Positions 1-54,110 of a DNA stretch of 64,000 bases are shown here, in pieces (within the stretch, counting starts at the first letter, position 1; each line of letters opens with the position of its first letter). The DNA is from Minisyncoccia bacterium (GTDB taxonomy: Bacteria; Patescibacteriota; Minisyncoccia; Phycocordibacterales; JAACPR01): the NCBI GenBank assembly GCA_041740795.1, contig JBGSLH010000012.1, positions 19,146 through 83,145 of the forward strand. Reading direction: 5' to 3'. A model generated the notes under the pieces. It saw only the letters and a program-made list of their open reading frames with translations, was not told where the DNA came from and ran no database searches. The position numbers were made by a program, and so were the translations under genes.

Positions 1-52
1 AAATCAATGAAAAATAGCCCGACCCACAGTCCTAGTTTGCCTTGTCAGAACT

Positions 53-67
53 ATGCTAAAATACCCT
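53..67 (+). promoter_or_regulatory. Extended -10 promoter-like box (TGcTAAAAT)
   Basis: The 15-nt ATGCTAAAATACCCT is identical to the box at 3529-3543, which ends 1 nt (-10 hexamer 6 nt) before the ydeI-like ATG. Here no ATG follows. Confidence 0.35.
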
Positions 68-147
68 TACAAGGCTTGAACTCACTGGTACTTAACCCGA
101 GTGGCCCGCCATTGACAGGTAGCACGAGATAGGTTGCTATACATTTA

Positions 148-170
148 CAAAACACAATTAATGTGTTTTT
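148..170 (+). terminator. Intrinsic terminator-like hairpin
   Basis: AAAACACA-ATTAA-TGTGTTTTT: 8-bp stem followed by a T-run. Confidence 0.5.
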
Positions 171-252
171 GAATAAATAAACAAGTTCTTTCACATTCCC
201 GAAGTGATCGAATAAACAACTCAGTCGGATAAGGCCGGCAAGGGATCATAAC

Positions 253-2295
253 ATGATAACACCAAAAAACTACCAAGTTCCAGCCATTTCAAAAGGGTTG
301 GAGGCTCTTCGTATGTATGGCAAAGCTCTCCTTGTCATGGCAACAGGACTAGGAAAGACCGTCGTCGCTGCATTCATGACCAAAGGAGAAATCTTGTCGC
401 AAGGCAAAGTTTTGTTCCTCTGTCATGACTCGCGTATTCTCAAGCAAGCTCGCAAATCTTTTTCTGAAATCATTGGTTCAGATTGTACCCATGGAGAATT
501 TCATGGGAAGCAAAAGGATCATGATGATGTGAATGTTATCTTTGCAACCTTTCAGACAATGAAGGATTGGAAAGATGCATTTTTTGAAGATGAGTTTGCA
601 ACTATCATTGTAGACGAAGGACACCACTCACAAGCAATCACATTCAAGTCTGTTTTGGAATATTTCAATCCAAAATTCATGTTTGCTCTCACGGCTACGC
701 CGGATCGAGCAGATGGACTCGATATCCGTGATTTATTTGGTGAAGAGGTTGTCGATATTTCTCTTGAAGAAGCTCTTGCAAATCGCTGGCTTCCGCATGT
801 TGAGTATCGTGTACTCTCAGATGGTATCGGTCGTGGTGTTCTCAAAAAACTCACAAAAGATATCGTGCAAGATGGTAAAAGGGTTTCAATCAAGCAATTG
901 AACGAGACTATTTTTATCAAAAAGCGGGACGAAGAGATTTCGAGAATCATACAGGAGCAAGAACAGAAGCAGGGAATCATTTTCTGCGAAAGTATTGCTC
1001 ACGCACATGAATTTCAAAAATCTCTCCCGTCTTCGGTGACACTTCATTCCAAAATGTCGCAAAAAGCTCAAGACAAGGCTCACGAAGGATTCAAGGCAGG
1101 AACGTATTCGTACATTCTTGTGATTGATAAGTACAACGAAGGCGTTGATGTACCAGAGACGGACTTAATTGTCTTTCTCAGGTGTACTGACTCTCGTCGT
1201 ATTTTCCTTCAACAGCTTGGTCGGGGGCTTCATTGTACAGATACAGACAAAAAGGTACTCGTTTTGGATTTTGTCGCAAACTGTGACCGAATCCAAATGA
1301 TCAAGGAACTGACAGACAAGATTCTATCATTTCTTCCAAGCTGGTCCGAAATTGACAAGAGTCCAATACATGTTTCAGGAGAAGGATTTGACTTCGTCTT
1401 TGACGAAGAACAGATTCAACTCTTGGAAATTTTGAGGAGTTTGAGACCGACCTATGTCAGTGATGTTCCTCATCTTTTGGTAGAATACCACCCAACCAAA
1501 AATGACCTTCCTGCAGATCAAGTACGAGCAGGATGGAATAGGAATTTTTGGTGGAGGTGTTCGCTTGACTCAAGACACGAGTGGAAAGCACGTGCTTCTC
1601 ATAGGCAGTTTGGAGTGGGTTGTCCATTTTGCTCAAACAAAAAGATTCACCCAGAAACCAACTCGCTCGCAGTAACTCACCCTGAACTTGCAAAAGAATA
1701 CCACCCGACCAAGAACGAGCTTCCTGCAGATCAAGTATTTGCAGGAACTAATCAAAAATTGTGGTGGATATGTTCTAAGGATTCAAGACACGATTGGGAG
1801 GCTGTGGGATCTTCCCGAAGCGGTCTAAAAACAAACTGTCCTTTCTGTGCTGGTCAAAAAGTTCATCCAGAAACCAACTCGCTCGCAGTAACTCACCCTG
1901 AACTTGCAAAAGAATACCACCCAACCAAAAATGAACTTCCTGCAGATCAAGTTTCTGCTGGAACTCATAAAAAGTTATGGTGGATATGTCCGAAAGAATC
2001 CCGTCATGTATGGGAAGCAGCAGGAAATAGTAGGGTGGGAGGAAATGGTTGTCCATTTTGCTCAAATAAAATGATTCATCCAGAAACCAACTCACTCGCA
2101 GTAACTCACCCTGAACTTGCAAAGGAGTATCATCCAACGAAAAACGAGCTTCCTGCAAATCAAGTTTTTGCTGGGGCCAGAAGAAAGTTTCAGTGGATAT
2201 GTTCCAAGGACCCTCGTCATGAATGGGAGATGCCTGGTTACAAGCGTTTTATTGGAGTAGGATGCCCTCATTGTAGGCGTTCAAAAAATATGTAG
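253..2295 (+). CDS. SF2 helicase (ResIII/DEAD-like core) fused to four tandem treble-clef zinc-ribbon modules
   Basis: Helicase motifs ATGLGKT (I), IIVDEGHH (II), LTATPDR (III), QQLGRGLH (VI). The C-terminal half has 4 repeats of YHPTKNELPADQV..WWIC..H.W....CPFC. AAGGGA Shine-Dalgarno before the ATG. Confidence 0.85.
   Translation: MITPKNYQVPAISKGLEALRMYGKALLVMATGLGKTVVAAFMTKGEILSQGKVLFLCHDSRILKQARKSFSEIIGSDCTHGEFHGKQKDHDDVNVIFATFQTMKDWKDAFFEDEFATIIVDEGHHSQAITFKSVLEYFNPKFMFALTATPDRADGLDIRDLFGEEVVDISLEEALANRWLPHVEYRVLSDGIGRGVLKKLTKDIVQDGKRVSIKQLNETIFIKKRDEEISRIIQEQEQKQGIIFCESIAHAHEFQKSLPSSVTLHSKMSQKAQDKAHEGFKAGTYSYILVIDKYNEGVDVPETDLIVFLRCTDSRRIFLQQLGRGLHCTDTDKKVLVLDFVANCDRIQMIKELTDKILSFLPSWSEIDKSPIHVSGEGFDFVFDEEQIQLLEILRSLRPTYVSDVPHLLVEYHPTKNDLPADQVRAGWNRNFWWRCSLDSRHEWKARASHRQFGVGCPFCSNKKIHPETNSLAVTHPELAKEYHPTKNELPADQVFAGTNQKLWWICSKDSRHDWEAVGSSRSGLKTNCPFCAGQKVHPETNSLAVTHPELAKEYHPTKNELPADQVSAGTHKKLWWICPKESRHVWEAAGNSRVGGNGCPFCSNKMIHPETNSLAVTHPELAKEYHPTKNELPANQVFAGARRKFQWICSKDPRHEWEMPGYKRFIGVGCPHCRRSKNM
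1465..2292 (+). repeat. Coding tandem repeat, 213-216 bp period, 4 units
   Basis: GTAACTCACCCTGAACTTGC recurs at 1672, 1888 and 2101 (spacings 216 and 213 bp), with long near-identical stretches between units. Confidence 0.9.
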
Positions 2296-2345
2296 TTTAT
2301 CATCGTTATACGGCAAAAATGATGAGAGTGGCGAGCTTCGCTAAT

Positions 2346-2377
2346 GGAGGGAACAGGTAATGCTGCCCTCCTTTTTT
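2346..2377 (+). terminator. Intrinsic terminator after the helicase gene
   Basis: GGAGGG..CCCTCC stem followed by TTTTTT. Confidence 0.6.
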
Positions 2378-2558
2378 ATTATGTAAACTAAATACTTATA
2401 TTTTATCCTTCAACAAAATCCTTTCAGATATATTCTCAAATATATCCCTTTTCTCCTGCATGTCTCCATCTTTCAGAATAAACTTCACATAATTCTTGAT
2501 GATACACAGCTATGCAAAATTTTATTTTTACTTTATGGTCGTATGTTAAAATTCAAAT

Positions 2559-3161
2559 ATGGATATCAATAAATATACTATTCCAGACAATGGGGCACAA
2601 AATGAAATACTTCCAAACCTTTTGAATTTAGAAACTATAGAGGAAATCAATGAATCAGAATTCCTTGGTTTTGTGCGTGCACAGCAAAATGCAATTGATG
2701 AATTGTCGGATGACACAGTATTTGATGTTTCATATTTGTATAAACTTCACAAAGAAGCTCTTGAGCACCTATATTCTTTTGCAGGAAAATTACGAACAGT
2801 GAACATGTCAAAAGGGAACTTTGCTTTTGCTCCTGCAAGCTTCCTTTCTCAGTCAATGAAAGATTTTGAAACTGAATTTTTAGATGTATTAAAAAATGAA
2901 ATAACCGATGACACTATTCTTTTACAAAATCTTGCACGAATGCATGCAGAACTATTATTCATTCATCCATTTCGAGAAGGGAATGGAAGAACTGCCCGTA
3001 TGTTTACAGATATGTTTTATTTATCAAAGACAGGAAAACTACTCGACTCTACTTTTTTGTTAGATAATCTAGAAGCATATATTCTAGCAGTACAACAAGC
3101 GAATCAAAAAGAATACACTTTGATGGAGAAACTATTTCTTGAGATGTCCTCTGGTCTTTAG
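2559..3161 (+). CDS. fic: Fic/DOC family protein (AMPylase-type toxin)
   Basis: Canonical Fic motif HPFREGNGRTAR. About 200 aa, like stand-alone Fic proteins. No [ST]xxxE[GN] inhibitory motif seen in the protein itself. Confidence 0.9.
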   Translation: MDINKYTIPDNGAQNEILPNLLNLETIEEINESEFLGFVRAQQNAIDELSDDTVFDVSYLYKLHKEALEHLYSFAGKLRTVNMSKGNFAFAPASFLSQSMKDFETEFLDVLKNEITDDTILLQNLARMHAELLFIHPFREGNGRTARMFTDMFYLSKTGKLLDSTFLLDNLEAYILAVQQANQKEYTLMEKLFLEMSSGL

Positions 3162-3314
3162 TTTTGAAAACTGAGATTTGGTGAATTTAATACCTTCAAT
3201 AGCAAAAGAAGTTCTCATTGTTTCAAATGAGCGAGATTTGAGTGCTGACTTGTTTAAACTCTTTAGAGAGAAGGGTTTTTGAGTCTTTGATTTCTTAATA
3301 CTGGTTGCTTTCAT
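3132..3314 (-). CDS. VbhA-like Fic antitoxin (60 aa), start trimmed to the internal ATG
   Basis: MKATSIKK...MRTSFAIEGIKF contains S-x-x-x-E-G, the Fic inhibitory-helix motif. TGgTATAAT box 6 nt upstream of the ATG at 3314. Overlaps the fic 3' end by 30 nt. Confidence 0.6.
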   Translation of the reverse strand: MKATSIKKSKTQKPFSLKSLNKSALKSRSFETMRTSFAIEGIKFTKSQFSKLKTRGHLKK

Positions 3315-3356
3315 ATTGTTATTATACCATATTGGGCTTAAAAATAAAGTTAAAAA

Positions 3357-3405
3357 GTGACACATCGCTGTCACAAAAACCTGCAATAAGTGTCACTTTT
3401 GTCAC
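3357..3405 (-). promoter_or_regulatory. Candidate operator: GTGACA/TGTCAC repeats upstream of the antitoxin promoter
   Basis: GTGACA-N6-TGTCAC at 3357-3374, plus TGTCAC at 3391 and GTCAC at 3401. Confidence 0.35.
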
Positions 3406-3544
3406 TTTTTGCTCTGCTCGAGACTCATTGAAAGAAGGAAGACAATAAGGTTGTCTTGCGATCATGTTTAGTGTTATTGAACCATAGGAATACCAGGAAG
3501 ATCAAGAACAGGATTTTGAATTATAAACATGCTAAAATACCCTC

Positions 3545-3835
3545 ATGTCCAAAACTCCCACCCACCTCCCTCATACTACTCCTCCAGATCTACAAAAAAT
3601 GCTCGCATCTTCAAAGGCGGCACAAGCGACATGGGAAGACATCACTCCTCTTGCACGCAACGAATGGGTCTGTTGGATCACTTCGGTCAAAAAACCTGAG
3701 ACGAGAAAACTTCATATCGAGCGAGCTCGCGAAAATCTCACTGCCAGGAAACGTCGACCTTGTTGTTGGTCAGATTGCTCTCATCGATATGAGTTTGCAC
3801 GAACACATGCAGACGCATCTTCTCATTTGCGTTAG
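3545..3835 (+). CDS. YdeI/OmpD-associated (OmdA) family protein
   Basis: PPDLQKML...ITPLARNEWVCWITSVKKPETRKLHIERA..RKRRPCCW matches the family pattern. Leaderless-type -10 box at 3533-3538. Confidence 0.6.
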   Translation: MSKTPTHLPHTTPPDLQKMLASSKAAQATWEDITPLARNEWVCWITSVKKPETRKLHIERARENLTARKRRPCCWSDCSHRYEFARTHADASSHLR

Positions 3836-3844
3836 AATAGATGT

Positions 3845-4582
3845 ATGAAGAAAAGAAAGCTCACTCTCCTCTGGATACTTCTCATATTTGTTTTCATATA
3901 TCTTAATCGAACCTATGCGCATATTTACAACACGATAGATACGGTTTCGCTTCAATCTCCGCCAATGGAAATGAAATATGACCTCGGTAATACTTCCCAA
4001 AAACTTCTCACCTACGTCGCGATAGGTGACAGTCTCACTGCTGGTGTCGGTGTTGATGAATTCACACAGTCATATCCGTATCTGCTTGCCAAACAGATTG
4101 CTGATACGGACAAACACGTTGTACTTCACACGTTTGCGGTACAGGGTGCACGAAGCGATACAGCACGTAATTTCATTGATTCTGCAGTGGCGGTTCAGCC
4201 TGACATCATTACAATTCTAATCGGAGTGAATGACATACACGGAAATGTTTTTAAAAAGAAATTCCAAAAAAACTACGAACAGATTCTAACAAGGCTCACG
4301 ACCGAAACTCGTGCCAAAATCTATCTGGTCGCCATCCCGTATATCGGTGCGTCAGATCTGATACGTTTTCCATATTCGTATTATTTTGAATACCAGACCA
4401 AGAGATTTAATGAGACTGTCCAAGAGCTTGCAGACACATACTCGGCTCAATATATAGATTTGTACACACAGACCCATACCCAAGCATATTCCAAGGAGTA
4501 TTATTCTGCAGACTTGTTTCATCCATCACCTGCAGGATATACTCAGTGGTCCGATATCCTCTATGACAGTATCAATCATTAA
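3845..4582 (+). CDS. SGNH/GDSL hydrolase, membrane-anchored
   Basis: Block I AIGDSLTAG, block III GVNDI, block V DLFHPS. N-terminal TM segment. Confidence 0.8.
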   Translation: MKKRKLTLLWILLIFVFIYLNRTYAHIYNTIDTVSLQSPPMEMKYDLGNTSQKLLTYVAIGDSLTAGVGVDEFTQSYPYLLAKQIADTDKHVVLHTFAVQGARSDTARNFIDSAVAVQPDIITILIGVNDIHGNVFKKKFQKNYEQILTRLTTETRAKIYLVAIPYIGASDLIRFPYSYYFEYQTKRFNETVQELADTYSAQYIDLYTQTHTQAYSKEYYSADLFHPSPAGYTQWSDILYDSINH

Positions 4583-53413: not shown

Positions 53414-53465
53414 GGGTTCGCGAGTACGTATGAGCGAAGCGAATTAGTAACTCGTGAACGAATCC
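53414..53465 (+). other. Conserved GAGC-GAA-GCGA hairpin, copy B
   Basis: The same 19-mer TATGAGCGAAGCGAATTAG as copy A, on a different basal stem (CGAGTAC/GTAACTCG, extended by GGGTTCG/CGAATCC). Confidence 0.65.
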
Positions 53466-53492
53466 TTTTTTCCTTGTGCTATAATCATTCCA

Positions 53493-54110
53493 ATGACGCC
53501 CAAAACTAAAAACTATATTTTTCTTGCGAGCCTGTCACTTGCTATTTTTACGGTCACATACACAGTACTCCTGATCATTGGACTTGTACCACGTCAGTTT
53601 GAGGGAACACAGAACGTTTTTCAAGTCATTCCTTTGGACAAAACATCTGAACCAGTTTCTACTGAAGACACAGACAAAAACCTCATTCCTCAACACGTTG
53701 AAATTCCAAAAATCGGTGTGGACTCAGTAATCCAGTTTCCTTCAAATATCGACGTGGCAACACTCGATACTGCACTTGCCAAGGGTGCTGTATATTATCC
53801 TGGATCTGGAACACTCCAGTCTGGCAACCTTTTTCTTTTTGGACACAGTACGAACTGGAAAGTTGTGAACAATCAGGCATACAAGACCTTCAATGATCTC
53901 GAAAAACTAGTTAAGGGTGACAAGATTATTCTTACAAGTGGTGACAAAAAATACACGTACACAGTGACAACAGTGCGACGTGCTGCTGATGATGACGTAC
54001 TTGTGGAATTTAATAAGGGAGATCGGATGATTACTATCTCTACTTGTGATACGTTCGGGAAAAAGCAGGATAGATGGGTGGTCGAGGCTGAATTTGAGGA
54101 AGTCGGGTAG
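53493..54110 (+). CDS. Sortase family transpeptidase
   Basis: N-terminal TM, LFLFGHS (His), ITISTCD (Cys), QDRWVV (Arg). TGcTATAAT box 7 nt before the ATG at 53493. Confidence 0.8.
   Translation: MTPKTKNYIFLASLSLAIFTVTYTVLLIIGLVPRQFEGTQNVFQVIPLDKTSEPVSTEDTDKNLIPQHVEIPKIGVDSVIQFPSNIDVATLDTALAKGAVYYPGSGTLQSGNLFLFGHSTNWKVVNNQAYKTFNDLEKLVKGDKIILTSGDKKYTYTVTTVRRAADDDVLVEFNKGDRMITISTCDTFGKKQDRWVVEAEFEEVG

Follow-up and report, generated by a model that had tools for sequence, protein, structure and literature searches.

Fic proteins of class I, in the classification of Engel et al. 2012 (as cited in PMC3667792 and PMC7479194), are defined by the absence of an (S/T)xxxE(G/N) motif from the Fic protein itself and by an adjacent small gene that encodes this motif. 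In the FicTA modules (VbhT/VbhA, EcFicT/YhfG, Fic-1/AntF and Bep/BiaA) the (S/T)xxxE(G/N) helix is contributed by a small protein distinct from the Fic, and the gene of this protein lies upstream of the toxin gene, co-directional and co-transcribed with it. In Yersinia pseudotuberculosis YPIII, AntY is encoded by an ORF located downstream of ficY, convergent with it and equipped with its own promoter (Lu et al. 2020, Front Microbiol, PMC7479194). FicY AMPylates ParE at Tyr106, with filamentation and SOS induction as consequences; AntY inhibits FicY in vitro, blocking the AMPylation of ParE (PMC7479194). The locus described here lies in a 64-kb window (64,000 nucleotides, the whole stretch of DNA that was analyzed). 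Judged by its sequence, its gene pair belongs to the FicY/AntY type, already described, as a distant member from Parcubacteria. We consider it likely that the locus is a class I Fic toxin–antitoxin cassette of this kind, and the interpretation of the pair in the initial annotation is supported.

The fic gene occupies positions 2559-3161 of the plus strand (from the ORF list) and encodes a class I Fic protein of 200 aa, a predicted AMP-transferase toxin. The protein matches the Pfam Fic/DOC family PF02661 with 66.3 bits (cut-off 24, E = 4.6e-18), and a Fic fold is predicted for it (AF2, pLDDT 89.6). The top Foldseek matches of the model are EfFic, Bep, EcFicT and VbhT, with probability 1.00 and TM-scores of 0.65-0.78; the fold of VbhT is close to that of the window model (TM-score of about 0.75), but VbhT adds a BID domain. 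The catalytic motif HPFx[D/E]GN[G/K]R and the second arginine are complete (HPFREGNGRTAR, His136 to Arg147, plus strand 2964-2999, read from the sequence). Residues H136, P137, F138, R139, E140, G141, N142, G143, R144 and R147 are unchanged across 39 Fic homologues. A regex scan of the 200-aa sequence found no [ST]xxxE[GN] motif, in agreement with the earlier description of an intact active site and no internal inhibitory motif. The window protein resembles the class III Fic proteins (NmFic, EfFic) in being a single-domain protein of about 200 aa, and the solved structure nearest to it in sequence is among them (EfFic, E = 1e-15). They differ in having their own C-terminal inhibitory SYxYEG helix, which the window Fic does not have: 64 residues follow its Fic motif, whereas SYxYEG-ending class III relatives have about 90, a comparison that leaves no room for a C-terminal inhibitory helix.

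An N-terminal SNEEEG, considered as an internal motif of the class II type, is seen in some Fic relatives of 65-68% identity and is absent from the window Fic. It sits in a variable acidic segment that is of low confidence in the model, and was therefore rejected as an inhibitory motif; the one SNEEEG-bearing locus examined (P0037, identical to L004) keeps the convergent antitoxin, which led us to reject the internal-motif reading. The PADLOC model PDC-S04 (PDLC04839) matches the window Fic with E = 7.1e-57 over residues 7-195 (model positions 5-200 of 205), whereas SoFic, a validated Fic defense gene whose product is a 361-aa class II protein, is a weaker HMM match. PDC-S04 is catalogued as a single-gene, unverified candidate and had no defense activity in one published test; the window locus adds a second gene, the antitoxin. 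In the plasmid collection, the nearest Fic matches reach just 33-38% identity.

The antitoxin gene lies on the minus strand at 3314-3132 (ATG at 3314, stop codon at 3134-3132) and encodes a 60-aa protein of the AntY type. The exact inhibitory motif that had been reported for this ORF, S36-F-A-I-E40-G41, was found at 3209-3192 of the minus strand and is invariant in the homologues. With this motif at residues 36-41 of a small gene product encoded next to fic, both features of the class I definition are found at this locus. An AF2 monomer of the protein has a helix at residues 30-39, followed by E40-G41, so that the motif caps the C-terminal end of the predicted helix, as expected; the N-terminal 28 residues are Lys/Ser-rich and of low confidence in the model. 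The motif alone is weak evidence, since [ST]xxxE[GN] is present in 9 of the 193 ORFs of 50-80 aa within the 64-kb window (4.7%). It is its conservation in relatives that lifts it beyond chance. Homologues of the 60-aa protein have 56-95% identity; ten of them, with 67-93% identity, share contigs with Fic homologues, and the SFAIEG core is identical in all 11 sequences of the small-protein family. Over codons 26-50, the differences at codon positions 1, 2 and 3 number 91, 58 and 261, the third position being dominant, and 150 of the 180 coding nucleotides lie outside fic. The substitution pattern thus clearly indicates a genuine gene under protein-level selection, strongest at the motif.

Searches of Pfam, NCBIfam, PADLOC and PDB sequences with the 60-aa protein returned nothing significant; matches to 2fb5 and CdiA were set aside as chance matches, and Foldseek with the small AF2 model gave no meaningful match, the protein being too small. 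The antitoxin family is without a model in Pfam or NCBIfam. One example carries the RefSeq label "hypothetical protein", and gene callers sometimes miss the gene. No DNA-binding domain was detected in the antitoxin by the Pfam and NCBIfam searches, and classical type II autoregulation is therefore not supported; in place of one operon autoregulated by a DNA-binding antitoxin, the locus has two separate promoters.

The two genes converge and their 3' ends overlap by 30 nt (3132-3161), as the initial annotation had noted. The figure is robust, as it is set by the positions of the two stop codons alone, and the overlap is kept in relatives: it is again 30 nt in L002, L003, L004, L085, L087, L093 and L095, and 33 nt in L089 and L091. 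The tail-to-tail pairing with an overlap of 30-33 nt was present in every Parcubacteria-type relative examined, and each Fic seen in this clade was accompanied by the small ORF. L001 has retained the antitoxin as an orphan after deletion of fic, an asymmetry that one would expect if the two genes form a toxin–antitoxin pair. Conservation of the small ORF next to Fic homologues had been named beforehand as the observation on which the pairing would stand or fall, and the ORF is conserved in close and distant relatives alike. All sequence features listed in that annotation are present, in the sequence and the ORF list, where it had placed them.

The window pair shares with FicY/AntY a class I Fic of about 200 aa without an internal motif and a motif carried on a downstream, convergent small ORF with its own promoter. 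Both window proteins are homologous to their counterparts at FicY/AntY-like loci, the small one by profile alignment with the convergent small ORFs of other phyla. A FicY-like Yersinia locus (L037) matches the window Fic by tblastn with 31% identity over residues 10-195 (E = 7e-26), and the histidine of its Fic motif is at residue 141, matching the position reported for FicY (PMC7479194). There are differences as well. The AntY-type motif of Proteobacteria is S-T-A-I-E-T (Glu-Thr), whereas that of the window is S-F-A-I-E-G (the canonical Glu-Gly); the overlap is 4 nt in the Yersinia-like locus and 30 nt in the window; the window host is of the Parcubacteria type, both window genes look leaderless, and activity, target and toxicity are predicted there by analogy. 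The convergent layout had been presented as a departure from the usual antitoxin-first operon. It is unusual when compared to VbhA/VbhT, but it is not new, having been biochemically validated in FicY/AntY (PMC7479194).

The assignment of the small protein to a VbhA type was borne out in part. The pairing with a class I Fic and the motif are conserved, but the profile search against VbhA and other antitoxin families reached no threshold: the window protein did not match the Pfam VbhA family PF18495 at E <= 1, its 10 homologues did not do so even at E <= 10, and the best match to this family among 39 convergent small ORFs had E = 0.095. The hhalign comparison of the window small-protein family (profile A1) with a small VbhA/BiaA set was weak (probability 6.6%, E = 0.0055). 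The profile of the convergent small ORFs of other phyla (A3) aligned with the same set at probability 61.5% and E = 7.8e-5, with the motif in register. The small protein is thus VbhA-like in its predicted working and not a demonstrated member of the VbhA family.

In the mechanism that we favor, Fic would act as an AMP-transferase, and the 60-aa protein from the opposite strand would block its ATP site. The helix that ends in S36xxxE40-G41 would dock over the Fic active site. There, by analogy, Glu40 would replace the γ-phosphate of ATP at Arg147, the second arginine of the Fic motif, so that ATP would bind unproductively. Fic set free from the antitoxin would AMPylate an essential target and growth would stop. 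Going by FicY and the FicT toxins, this target would most likely be GyrB or ParE, the ATPase subunits of type II topoisomerases; because identity to FicY is just 31%, the target specificity may differ from that of FicY. Our findings leave the understanding of Fic inhibition as such unchanged.

The pair could instead be a regulated AMPylase/deAMPylase switch, in which the complex of Fic with the small protein is the normal, active form that removes AMP, and AMPylation is transient. Similar behavior has been reported for Fic-1–AntF and for the glutamate-containing EfFic; the latter, the closest solved structure by both sequence and fold, is described as bifunctional, and the motif glutamate has been implicated in deAMPylation in the literature. 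We nonetheless judge this account unlikely. FicY, the nearest characterized relative with the same layout, is a toxin neutralized by AntY (PMC7479194), the cassette travels on mobile islands, and in L001 the antitoxin outlives the toxin gene. The switch and the toxin–antitoxin reading are, however, not mutually exclusive.

The tail-to-tail arrangement reads as real, widely conserved and not peculiar to the window. Fic relatives encoded at 81 loci in more than 10 phyla were compared; a convergent small ORF with the motif S..xE[G/T] was found at 56 of the loci, and at 60 when four variant motifs are counted. L036 and L056 have the co-directional form instead; some 1,800 homologues were detected in all. 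Hosts of the convergent pairs include Bacteroidota, Nitrospirota, Cyanobacteria, Proteobacteria, Verrucomicrobia and Roizmanbacteria. The small ORF overlaps the 3' end of fic in 49 of the 56 convergent pairs, with a median overlap of 23 nt and lengths across phyla of 4-68 nt; neither the length nor the sequence of the overlap is conserved. Across phyla, the motif glutamate is the sole invariant residue of the small ORFs and the motif serine is nearly invariant. Profile A1 aligns with profile A3 at probability 93% (hhalign, E = 2.9e-7, 29 columns centered on the motif), and a search of the whole PDB with A3 gave BiaA and VbhA as the sole matches (E = 0.24-0.83), with the motif in register. A convergent pair with overlap had been reported once, in Yersinia; this layout appears to be standard in a wide Fic subfamily whose range extends to CPR bacteria.

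Each gene is preceded by a promoter-like box at a fixed distance from its start codon. The extended -10-like box of fic, TGTTAAAAT, lies at 2544-2552 of the plus strand, 6 nt before the ATG at 2559; the box and its exact 6-nt spacing are kept in L002, L003, L085, L087, L089 and L091, with a spacer of varying sequence. The extended -10 box of the antitoxin gene, TGGTATAAT, lies at 3329-3321 of the minus strand, again 6 nt before the ATG at 3314, and the arrangement TGnTAnAAT, 6 nt, ATG recurs with a variable spacer in 9 of 9 relatives. The constant distance to the ATG in relatives strengthens the proposal that each gene has its own leaderless-type promoter. Both genes are probably leaderless and served by two independent promoters, and transcription would start at the ATG in each case; the transcript ends are likewise our inference.

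Beyond the start of the antitoxin gene lies a cluster of GTGACA hexamers (3357-3362 on the plus strand; 3369-3374, 3391-3396 and 3400-3405 on the minus strand). Four in 49 nt compare to 42 in the 64 kb (Poisson P of about 4e-8 per 49-nt span and about 6e-5 for the whole window). The four hexamers at 3357-3405 had been interpreted as half-sites upstream of the antitoxin promoter; the repeats are there, and a different structure is more likely to explain them. Read on the minus strand, 3345-3405 consists of an A-tract, a GTGACA/TGTCAC stem and a T-tract, and forms a terminator-like hairpin that contains all four hexamers (terminator scan and folding; scan match at 3374-3357, MFE -23.2 kcal/mol, z = -4.56). 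The 10-bp consensus stem is kept in nine relatives, including L093, whose hairpin interior is unrelated; no compensatory changes were seen in the stem among the nine, and two of them have an A-C mismatch. The 85-nt hairpin element has a second copy in L089, with no promoter after it. On account of the A-tract/T-tract hairpin, the stem kept in L093 and the promoter-less copy in L089, the operator reading was demoted, and we favor a terminator-like hairpin that would work in both directions and lies at the cassette's edge. A second GTGACA cluster, at 53917-53969, is inside a coding ORF and probably due to chance. Rfam matches within positions 1-4000 were below threshold (ohsC, for example, with 29 bits against a gathering score of 50) and were rejected.

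No terminator-like structure was found within the gene overlap (folding z of +0.8 to +1.2), and the sole good plus-strand hairpin downstream of fic sits past the entire antitoxin gene. The fic transcript could therefore be antisense to the whole of that gene, and antisense or interference control of the pair is plausible. These two observations, along with the 3' overlap in 49 of 56 convergent pairs, would also suit an arrangement in which control is mainly at the RNA level, by convergent transcripts that are mutually antisense or collide, and the small protein is secondary. We regard this as very improbable: selection on the small ORF clearly acts on its protein, most strongly at the motif, this motif is the sole feature kept across phyla while the length and sequence of the overlap are not, and AntY protein alone inhibits FicY in vitro (PMC7479194). 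An RNA layer could add to the protein mechanism but could not replace it. That the 60-aa ORF is a chance antisense ORF downstream of fic with a coincidental motif, as its presence in 4.7% of the window's 50-80-aa ORFs and the lack of Pfam, NCBIfam and PDB matches might suggest, is effectively refuted by homologues called as genes in independent assemblies, the dominance of third-position substitutions, the 150 of 180 coding nucleotides outside fic and the recurrence of a motif-bearing convergent ORF in 56-60 loci of many phyla.

With the protein-level toxin–antitoxin mechanism as the preferred reading, a further proposal can be offered tentatively, and as a whole we find it possible though doubtful. 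The overlapping layout may be a selected regulatory device of a largely unannotated Fic–antitoxin superfamily that spans more than 10 phyla, CPR bacteria included; fic transcripts without a terminator may run antisense through the antitoxin gene to the shared two-way terminator, and the antitoxin promoter, if the stronger, may hold fic down by collision or double-stranded RNA. If this were true, PDC-S04 would in reality comprise two genes, the second of them overlooked both by gene callers and in protein-family libraries. The PADLOC entry for the toxin is a single-gene candidate; cloning such a Fic alone would amount to cloning an unguarded toxin. The pair, with its two probably leaderless promoters and obligatory 3' overlap, is a small natural system in which control of a toxin by antisense RNA or interference could be studied.

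The conserved toxin–antitoxin cassette extends over about 2505-3426, with 76-86% DNA identity to relatives by blastn; in the comparison of the window with related loci, these relatives lie in other genomic contexts. The fic gene adjoins a restriction-like helicase on a mobile island. The cassette is part of a decayed integrative island (serine recombinase, reverse transcriptase, helicases) whose recombinase has been lost in this genome, and its role is probably island maintenance and/or abortive-infection defense. In relatives, the serine recombinase gene is intact beside fic. In the window, the last ~34 codons of a large serine recombinase gene persist on the minus strand at 2401-2500, a stretch whose DNA matches the L089 and L085 recombinase genes at their 3' ends (86%), and the translation of this remnant (IIKNYVKFILKDGDMQEKRDIFENISERILLKDKI, then the stop) matches the C-terminus of the L089 recombinase.

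The pair consists of a class I Fic, the predicted toxin, and an antitoxin carrying the inhibitory helix, encoded by a separate gene; the two genes lie tail-to-tail and share 30 nt. The features first noted are genuine, and the reading given in the initial annotation, a class I Fic with a VbhA-type antitoxin, is essentially right. By sequence and structural model, the 200-aa protein (2559–3161, plus strand, from the sequence and the ORF list) belongs to the class I Fic enzymes. It scored 66 bits with the Pfam Fic model (cut-off 24), and resembled the NCBIfam models for NmFic, E. coli Fic and VbhT, below their equivalog cut-offs. The active site is intact, as first described: the Fic motif HPFREGNGRTAR occupies residues 136–147 (nt 2964–2999, plus strand), and His136 and both motif arginines are invariant across the Fic family. 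The AlphaFold model, computed with 39 homologues as input, was confident (pLDDT 89.6). The nearest solved structures are EfFic, NmFic and VbhT, and the structural matches of the model were EfFic, the Bartonella Bep Fic domains, EcFicT and VbhT. A motif scan found no [ST]xxxE[GN] inhibitory motif within the protein, which bears out another point of that annotation. The Fic motif is followed by 64 residues, compared to about 90 in more distant class III relatives; the latter have a C-terminal SYxYEG helix of their own, whereas the window Fic is without one.

The motif is found instead on the 60-aa ORF of the opposite strand (3314–3132, minus strand, from the sequence and the ORF list; ATG at 3314, stop at 3134–3132), as S36-F-A-I-E40-G41 at 3209–3192. 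A motif of this type is commonplace by itself, being present in 9 of the 193 window ORFs of 50–80 aa, so the case for the pair depends on comparison with relatives. Ten homologues of the small protein (67–93% identity) were found among 5.8 billion proteins searched, one of them labeled as a Candidatus Parcubacteria MAG, and their contigs agree in length with those of the closest Fic homologues. The segment KSRSFE.MRTSFAIEGI.F is almost invariant in the family, and the Lys/Ser-rich N-terminus is variable. Across nine loci, differences within codons 26–50 fall at codon positions 1, 2 and 3 in the numbers 91, 58 and 261, and synonymous codon differences outnumber non-synonymous ones, a pattern that indicates selection at the protein level. 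Of 180 coding nucleotides, 150 lie outside fic. This sequence evidence marks the small ORF as a genuine gene that has been conserved. The monomer model has a helix at residues 30–39 ending in E40-G41 and a second helix at 46–54, a predicted placement that matches the site expected for the inhibitory motif, the C-terminal end of a helix. The gene was left uncalled by the gene caller in one metagenome assembly (L095:3583–3765, minus strand), and an antitoxin-type ORF on a RefSeq Marinomonas plasmid (L092:1968–2126, minus strand) is annotated as 'hypothetical protein'.

The convergent pair was present in every Parcubacteria-type relative examined, down to 60% Fic identity. The overlap in the window (3132–3161, both strands), read from the positions of the two stop codons, has the same length of 30 nt in seven relatives (loci L002, L003, L004, L085, L087, L093 and L095) and is 33 nt in L089 and L091. 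We extended the comparison with a one-genome-per-species scan that gave 80 Fic loci at 28–49% identity to the window Fic; together with L002–L004, 81 loci with an intact Fic ORF were counted. In 56 of the 81, the 3′ end of fic is reached or entered by the end of a convergent small ORF with the motif S..[IVLF]E[GNTS], and in four further loci such an ORF carries a variant motif. The small ORF is thus kept beside Fic homologues both near and far. The genes overlap in 49 of the 56 convergent pairs, by 4–68 nt (median 23). Hosts outside the proteobacteria include Bacteroidota, Balneolales relatives, Nitrospirota, Nitrospinota, Cyanobacteria, Verrucomicrobia, Desulfobacterota and Roizmanbacteria; Beta- and Gammaproteobacteria (Yersinia, Serratia, Proteus, Pantoea, Shewanella and Salinivibrio) also host such pairs. 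None of the 13 class III loci of the census has a convergent motif-bearing small ORF, and the classical upstream, co-directional antitoxin was seen at only two census loci (L036 and L056). Among 39 aligned convergent small proteins, the Glu is the sole invariant column and the Ser the sole nearly invariant one. Profile alignment of the Parcubacteria small-protein family with these 39 gave a probability of 93% (E = 2.9e-7).

The convergent layout itself is not new, having already been described as FicY/AntY. FicY of Yersinia pseudotuberculosis is a class I Fic that AMPylates Tyr106 of ParE and causes growth arrest, filamentation and the SOS response; AntY blocks it in vitro in a dose-dependent manner, and the authors remarked that independent promoters may permit more specific regulation (Lu et al. 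2020, PMC7479194). The Yersinia locus of our census (L037) is FicY-like: its Fic is 31% identical to that of the window, with the Fic-motif His at residue 141, and its convergent ORF encodes 56 aa. The overlap there is 4 nt and the motif STAVET, compared to 30 nt and SFAIEG in the window. The window pair is a new, distant Parcubacteria member of the FicY/AntY kind. In the literature searched, no paper besides Lu et al. mentions FicY or AntY, and we found no published statement of the generality of the layout or of the 3′-end overlap. The present analysis adds its generality: across a large Fic subfamily that is poorly annotated, convergent genes with overlapping 3′ ends are the rule.

The assignment to VbhA-type antitoxins is supported as to function. 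The window small protein and its family fell below every threshold in Pfam, NCBIfam and PDB sequence searches. Pfam has no model for the convergent family; VbhA, the most frequent match, was hit by 3 of the 39 members at E of at least 0.095, its threshold not being reached. NCBIfam likewise has no model and gave no relevant match for the 39. Yet a profile of these proteins, searched against all 177,635 distinct PDB sequences, gave exactly four matches (E = 0.24–0.83), all of them Fic antitoxins (BiaA twice, VbhA twice) with the motif in register. In profile–profile comparison with a small set of VbhA, BiaA and co-directional antitoxins, the broad convergent family matched at E = 7.8e-5, and the window's own family matched weakly (probability 6.6%). 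From these searches it is well supported that the small protein works like VbhA, as distinct from belonging to the VbhA family. For the window pair we infer the inhibition mechanism, the target and any RNA-level control.

Each gene has a promoter-like box exactly 6 nt before its ATG: TGTTAAAAT for fic (2544–2552, plus strand) and TGGTATAAT for the antitoxin gene (3329–3321, minus strand). The arrangement is TG[GCT]TA[TC]AAT, six variable bases and ATG at nine loci on the antitoxin side, and T[GA][TA]TAA[AG]AT, six variable bases and ATG at seven loci on the fic side. Because box and spacing are conserved while the spacer varies, both are probably extended −10 promoters with transcripts starting at the start codon, so that the pair probably has two independent, leaderless promoters, as had been proposed. 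The geometry is not peculiar to the pair, as TAnAAT occurs at the same distance in 5 of the 46 large window ORFs; a Shine–Dalgarno-like sequence precedes only 8 of the 46. In many window genes a TAnAAT-like box lies 6–7 nt upstream of the start codon, and the host organism may often use leaderless expression. The antitoxin box is a perfect consensus and the fic box has one mismatch; by box strength, the antitoxin would be expressed more highly than fic.

The GTGACA/TGTCAC half-sites noted upstream of the antitoxin promoter are present as four hexamers within 3357–3405. Such a density, four copies in 49 nt against 42 copies per 64 kb, is very unlikely to arise by chance (about 6e-5 across the window as a whole). 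Read on the minus strand, the repeats form a hairpin: one arm consists of an A-tract and GTGACAC, the other of GTGTCAC and a T-tract, and further T's come after it. This hairpin has an MFE of −23.2 kcal/mol (z = −4.56, with none of 200 shuffles folding as well), and a consensus terminator scan flags its inner part. For nine relatives a stem of 10 bp is predicted, which L093 keeps despite unrelated enclosed sequence; among the nine there are no compensatory changes, and two have an A–C mismatch. Its flanks, A-rich at one end and T-rich at the other, could allow the stem to terminate transcription in either direction. The alternative, a simple operator of the antitoxin promoter, is argued against by relative L089, where the element of about 85 nt that holds the repeats is a direct repeat (2952–3028 and 3888–3964, 936 bp apart) and no promoter follows the second copy. 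We rate a putative terminator or cassette-edge element above an operator. The L089 copies flank a 159-aa ORF with a faint LAGLIDADG-like match (E = 0.035), and a site-specific insertion may have left this duplication. On the plus strand, the hairpin is the first good one downstream of fic and the overlap itself is unstructured; the fic transcript may therefore cross, and be antisense to, the entire antitoxin gene. Three further hexamers at 53917–53969 (plus strand), 23–24 nt apart inside a coding ORF (53454–54110), arise from repeated G-D-K-like codons and are probably due to chance.

DNA identity between the window and relatives (76–86%) is confined to about 2505–3426, and the pair therefore behaves as a cassette. 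In several relatives a large serine recombinase adjoins fic divergently, sometimes followed by a reverse transcriptase, with tRNA-Ser genes nearby. The full recombinase gene lies beside fic in L085, L086, L089, L090 and L003; in the window, matching to relatives reveals only its 3′ remnant of the last ~34 codons (2401–2500, minus strand, ending …IIKNYVKFILKDGDMQEKRDIFENISERILLKDKI and stop), so the island has decayed here. In L001 (2609–3772; compare L089:4001–7167) the fic and recombinase genes are deleted, and a reverse transcriptase ORF (Pfam RVT_1, E = 6e-27) ends in the last ten fic codons (…KKLFLKMSSGL). The orphan antitoxin there is intact, 95% identical and still overlapped by 30 nt by the reverse transcriptase ORF. 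Survival of the small protein after loss of the Fic is what one would expect of an antidote.

Transfer RNA-Ser genes flank the fic islands on both sides in L085 (2886–2973 and 7702–7789) and L087 (861–950 and 7070–7157), and one lies beside fic in L091 (4950–5039), which suggests that tRNA-Ser is the integration target. In L085 and L087 alike, ARAGORN gave one of the two tRNA-Ser genes the unusual anticodon ACT, which suggests that one copy could be a hybrid. In the window, 90 nt at 18–107, ending …GGCCCGCCA, are 96.7% identical to L087:5552–5641, far above the surroundings, and the 31 nt at 106–136 match the 3′ flank of the L085 tRNA-Ser(GCT) gene. The 90-nt segment had no ARAGORN or Rfam match and folded no better than shuffled sequences (z about −0.8 to −0.9); a degraded tRNA, an attachment site or an unknown small RNA are possible readings.

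The gene of a 96-aa OmdA/YdeI-family protein (3545–3835, plus strand; Pfam E = 7.6e-17) is divergent from that of the antitoxin; it falls immediately beyond the conserved cassette, and was not found beside the pair in relatives. In PADLOC, the window Fic has a full-length match to PDC-S04 (E = 7.1e-57), an unverified candidate that had no defence activity in the one published test found. Directly upstream of the cassette is a 680-aa helicase (253–2295, plus strand; ResIII and Helicase_C), whose C-terminal half is made up of DUF4379 treble-clef zinc fingers in four tandem repeats (E = 8e-61). In its helicase part it is similar to PbeA (PADLOC) and to type IV methyl-directed restriction enzymes (E = 3e-49), and on this basis the gene looks like a defence-type gene.
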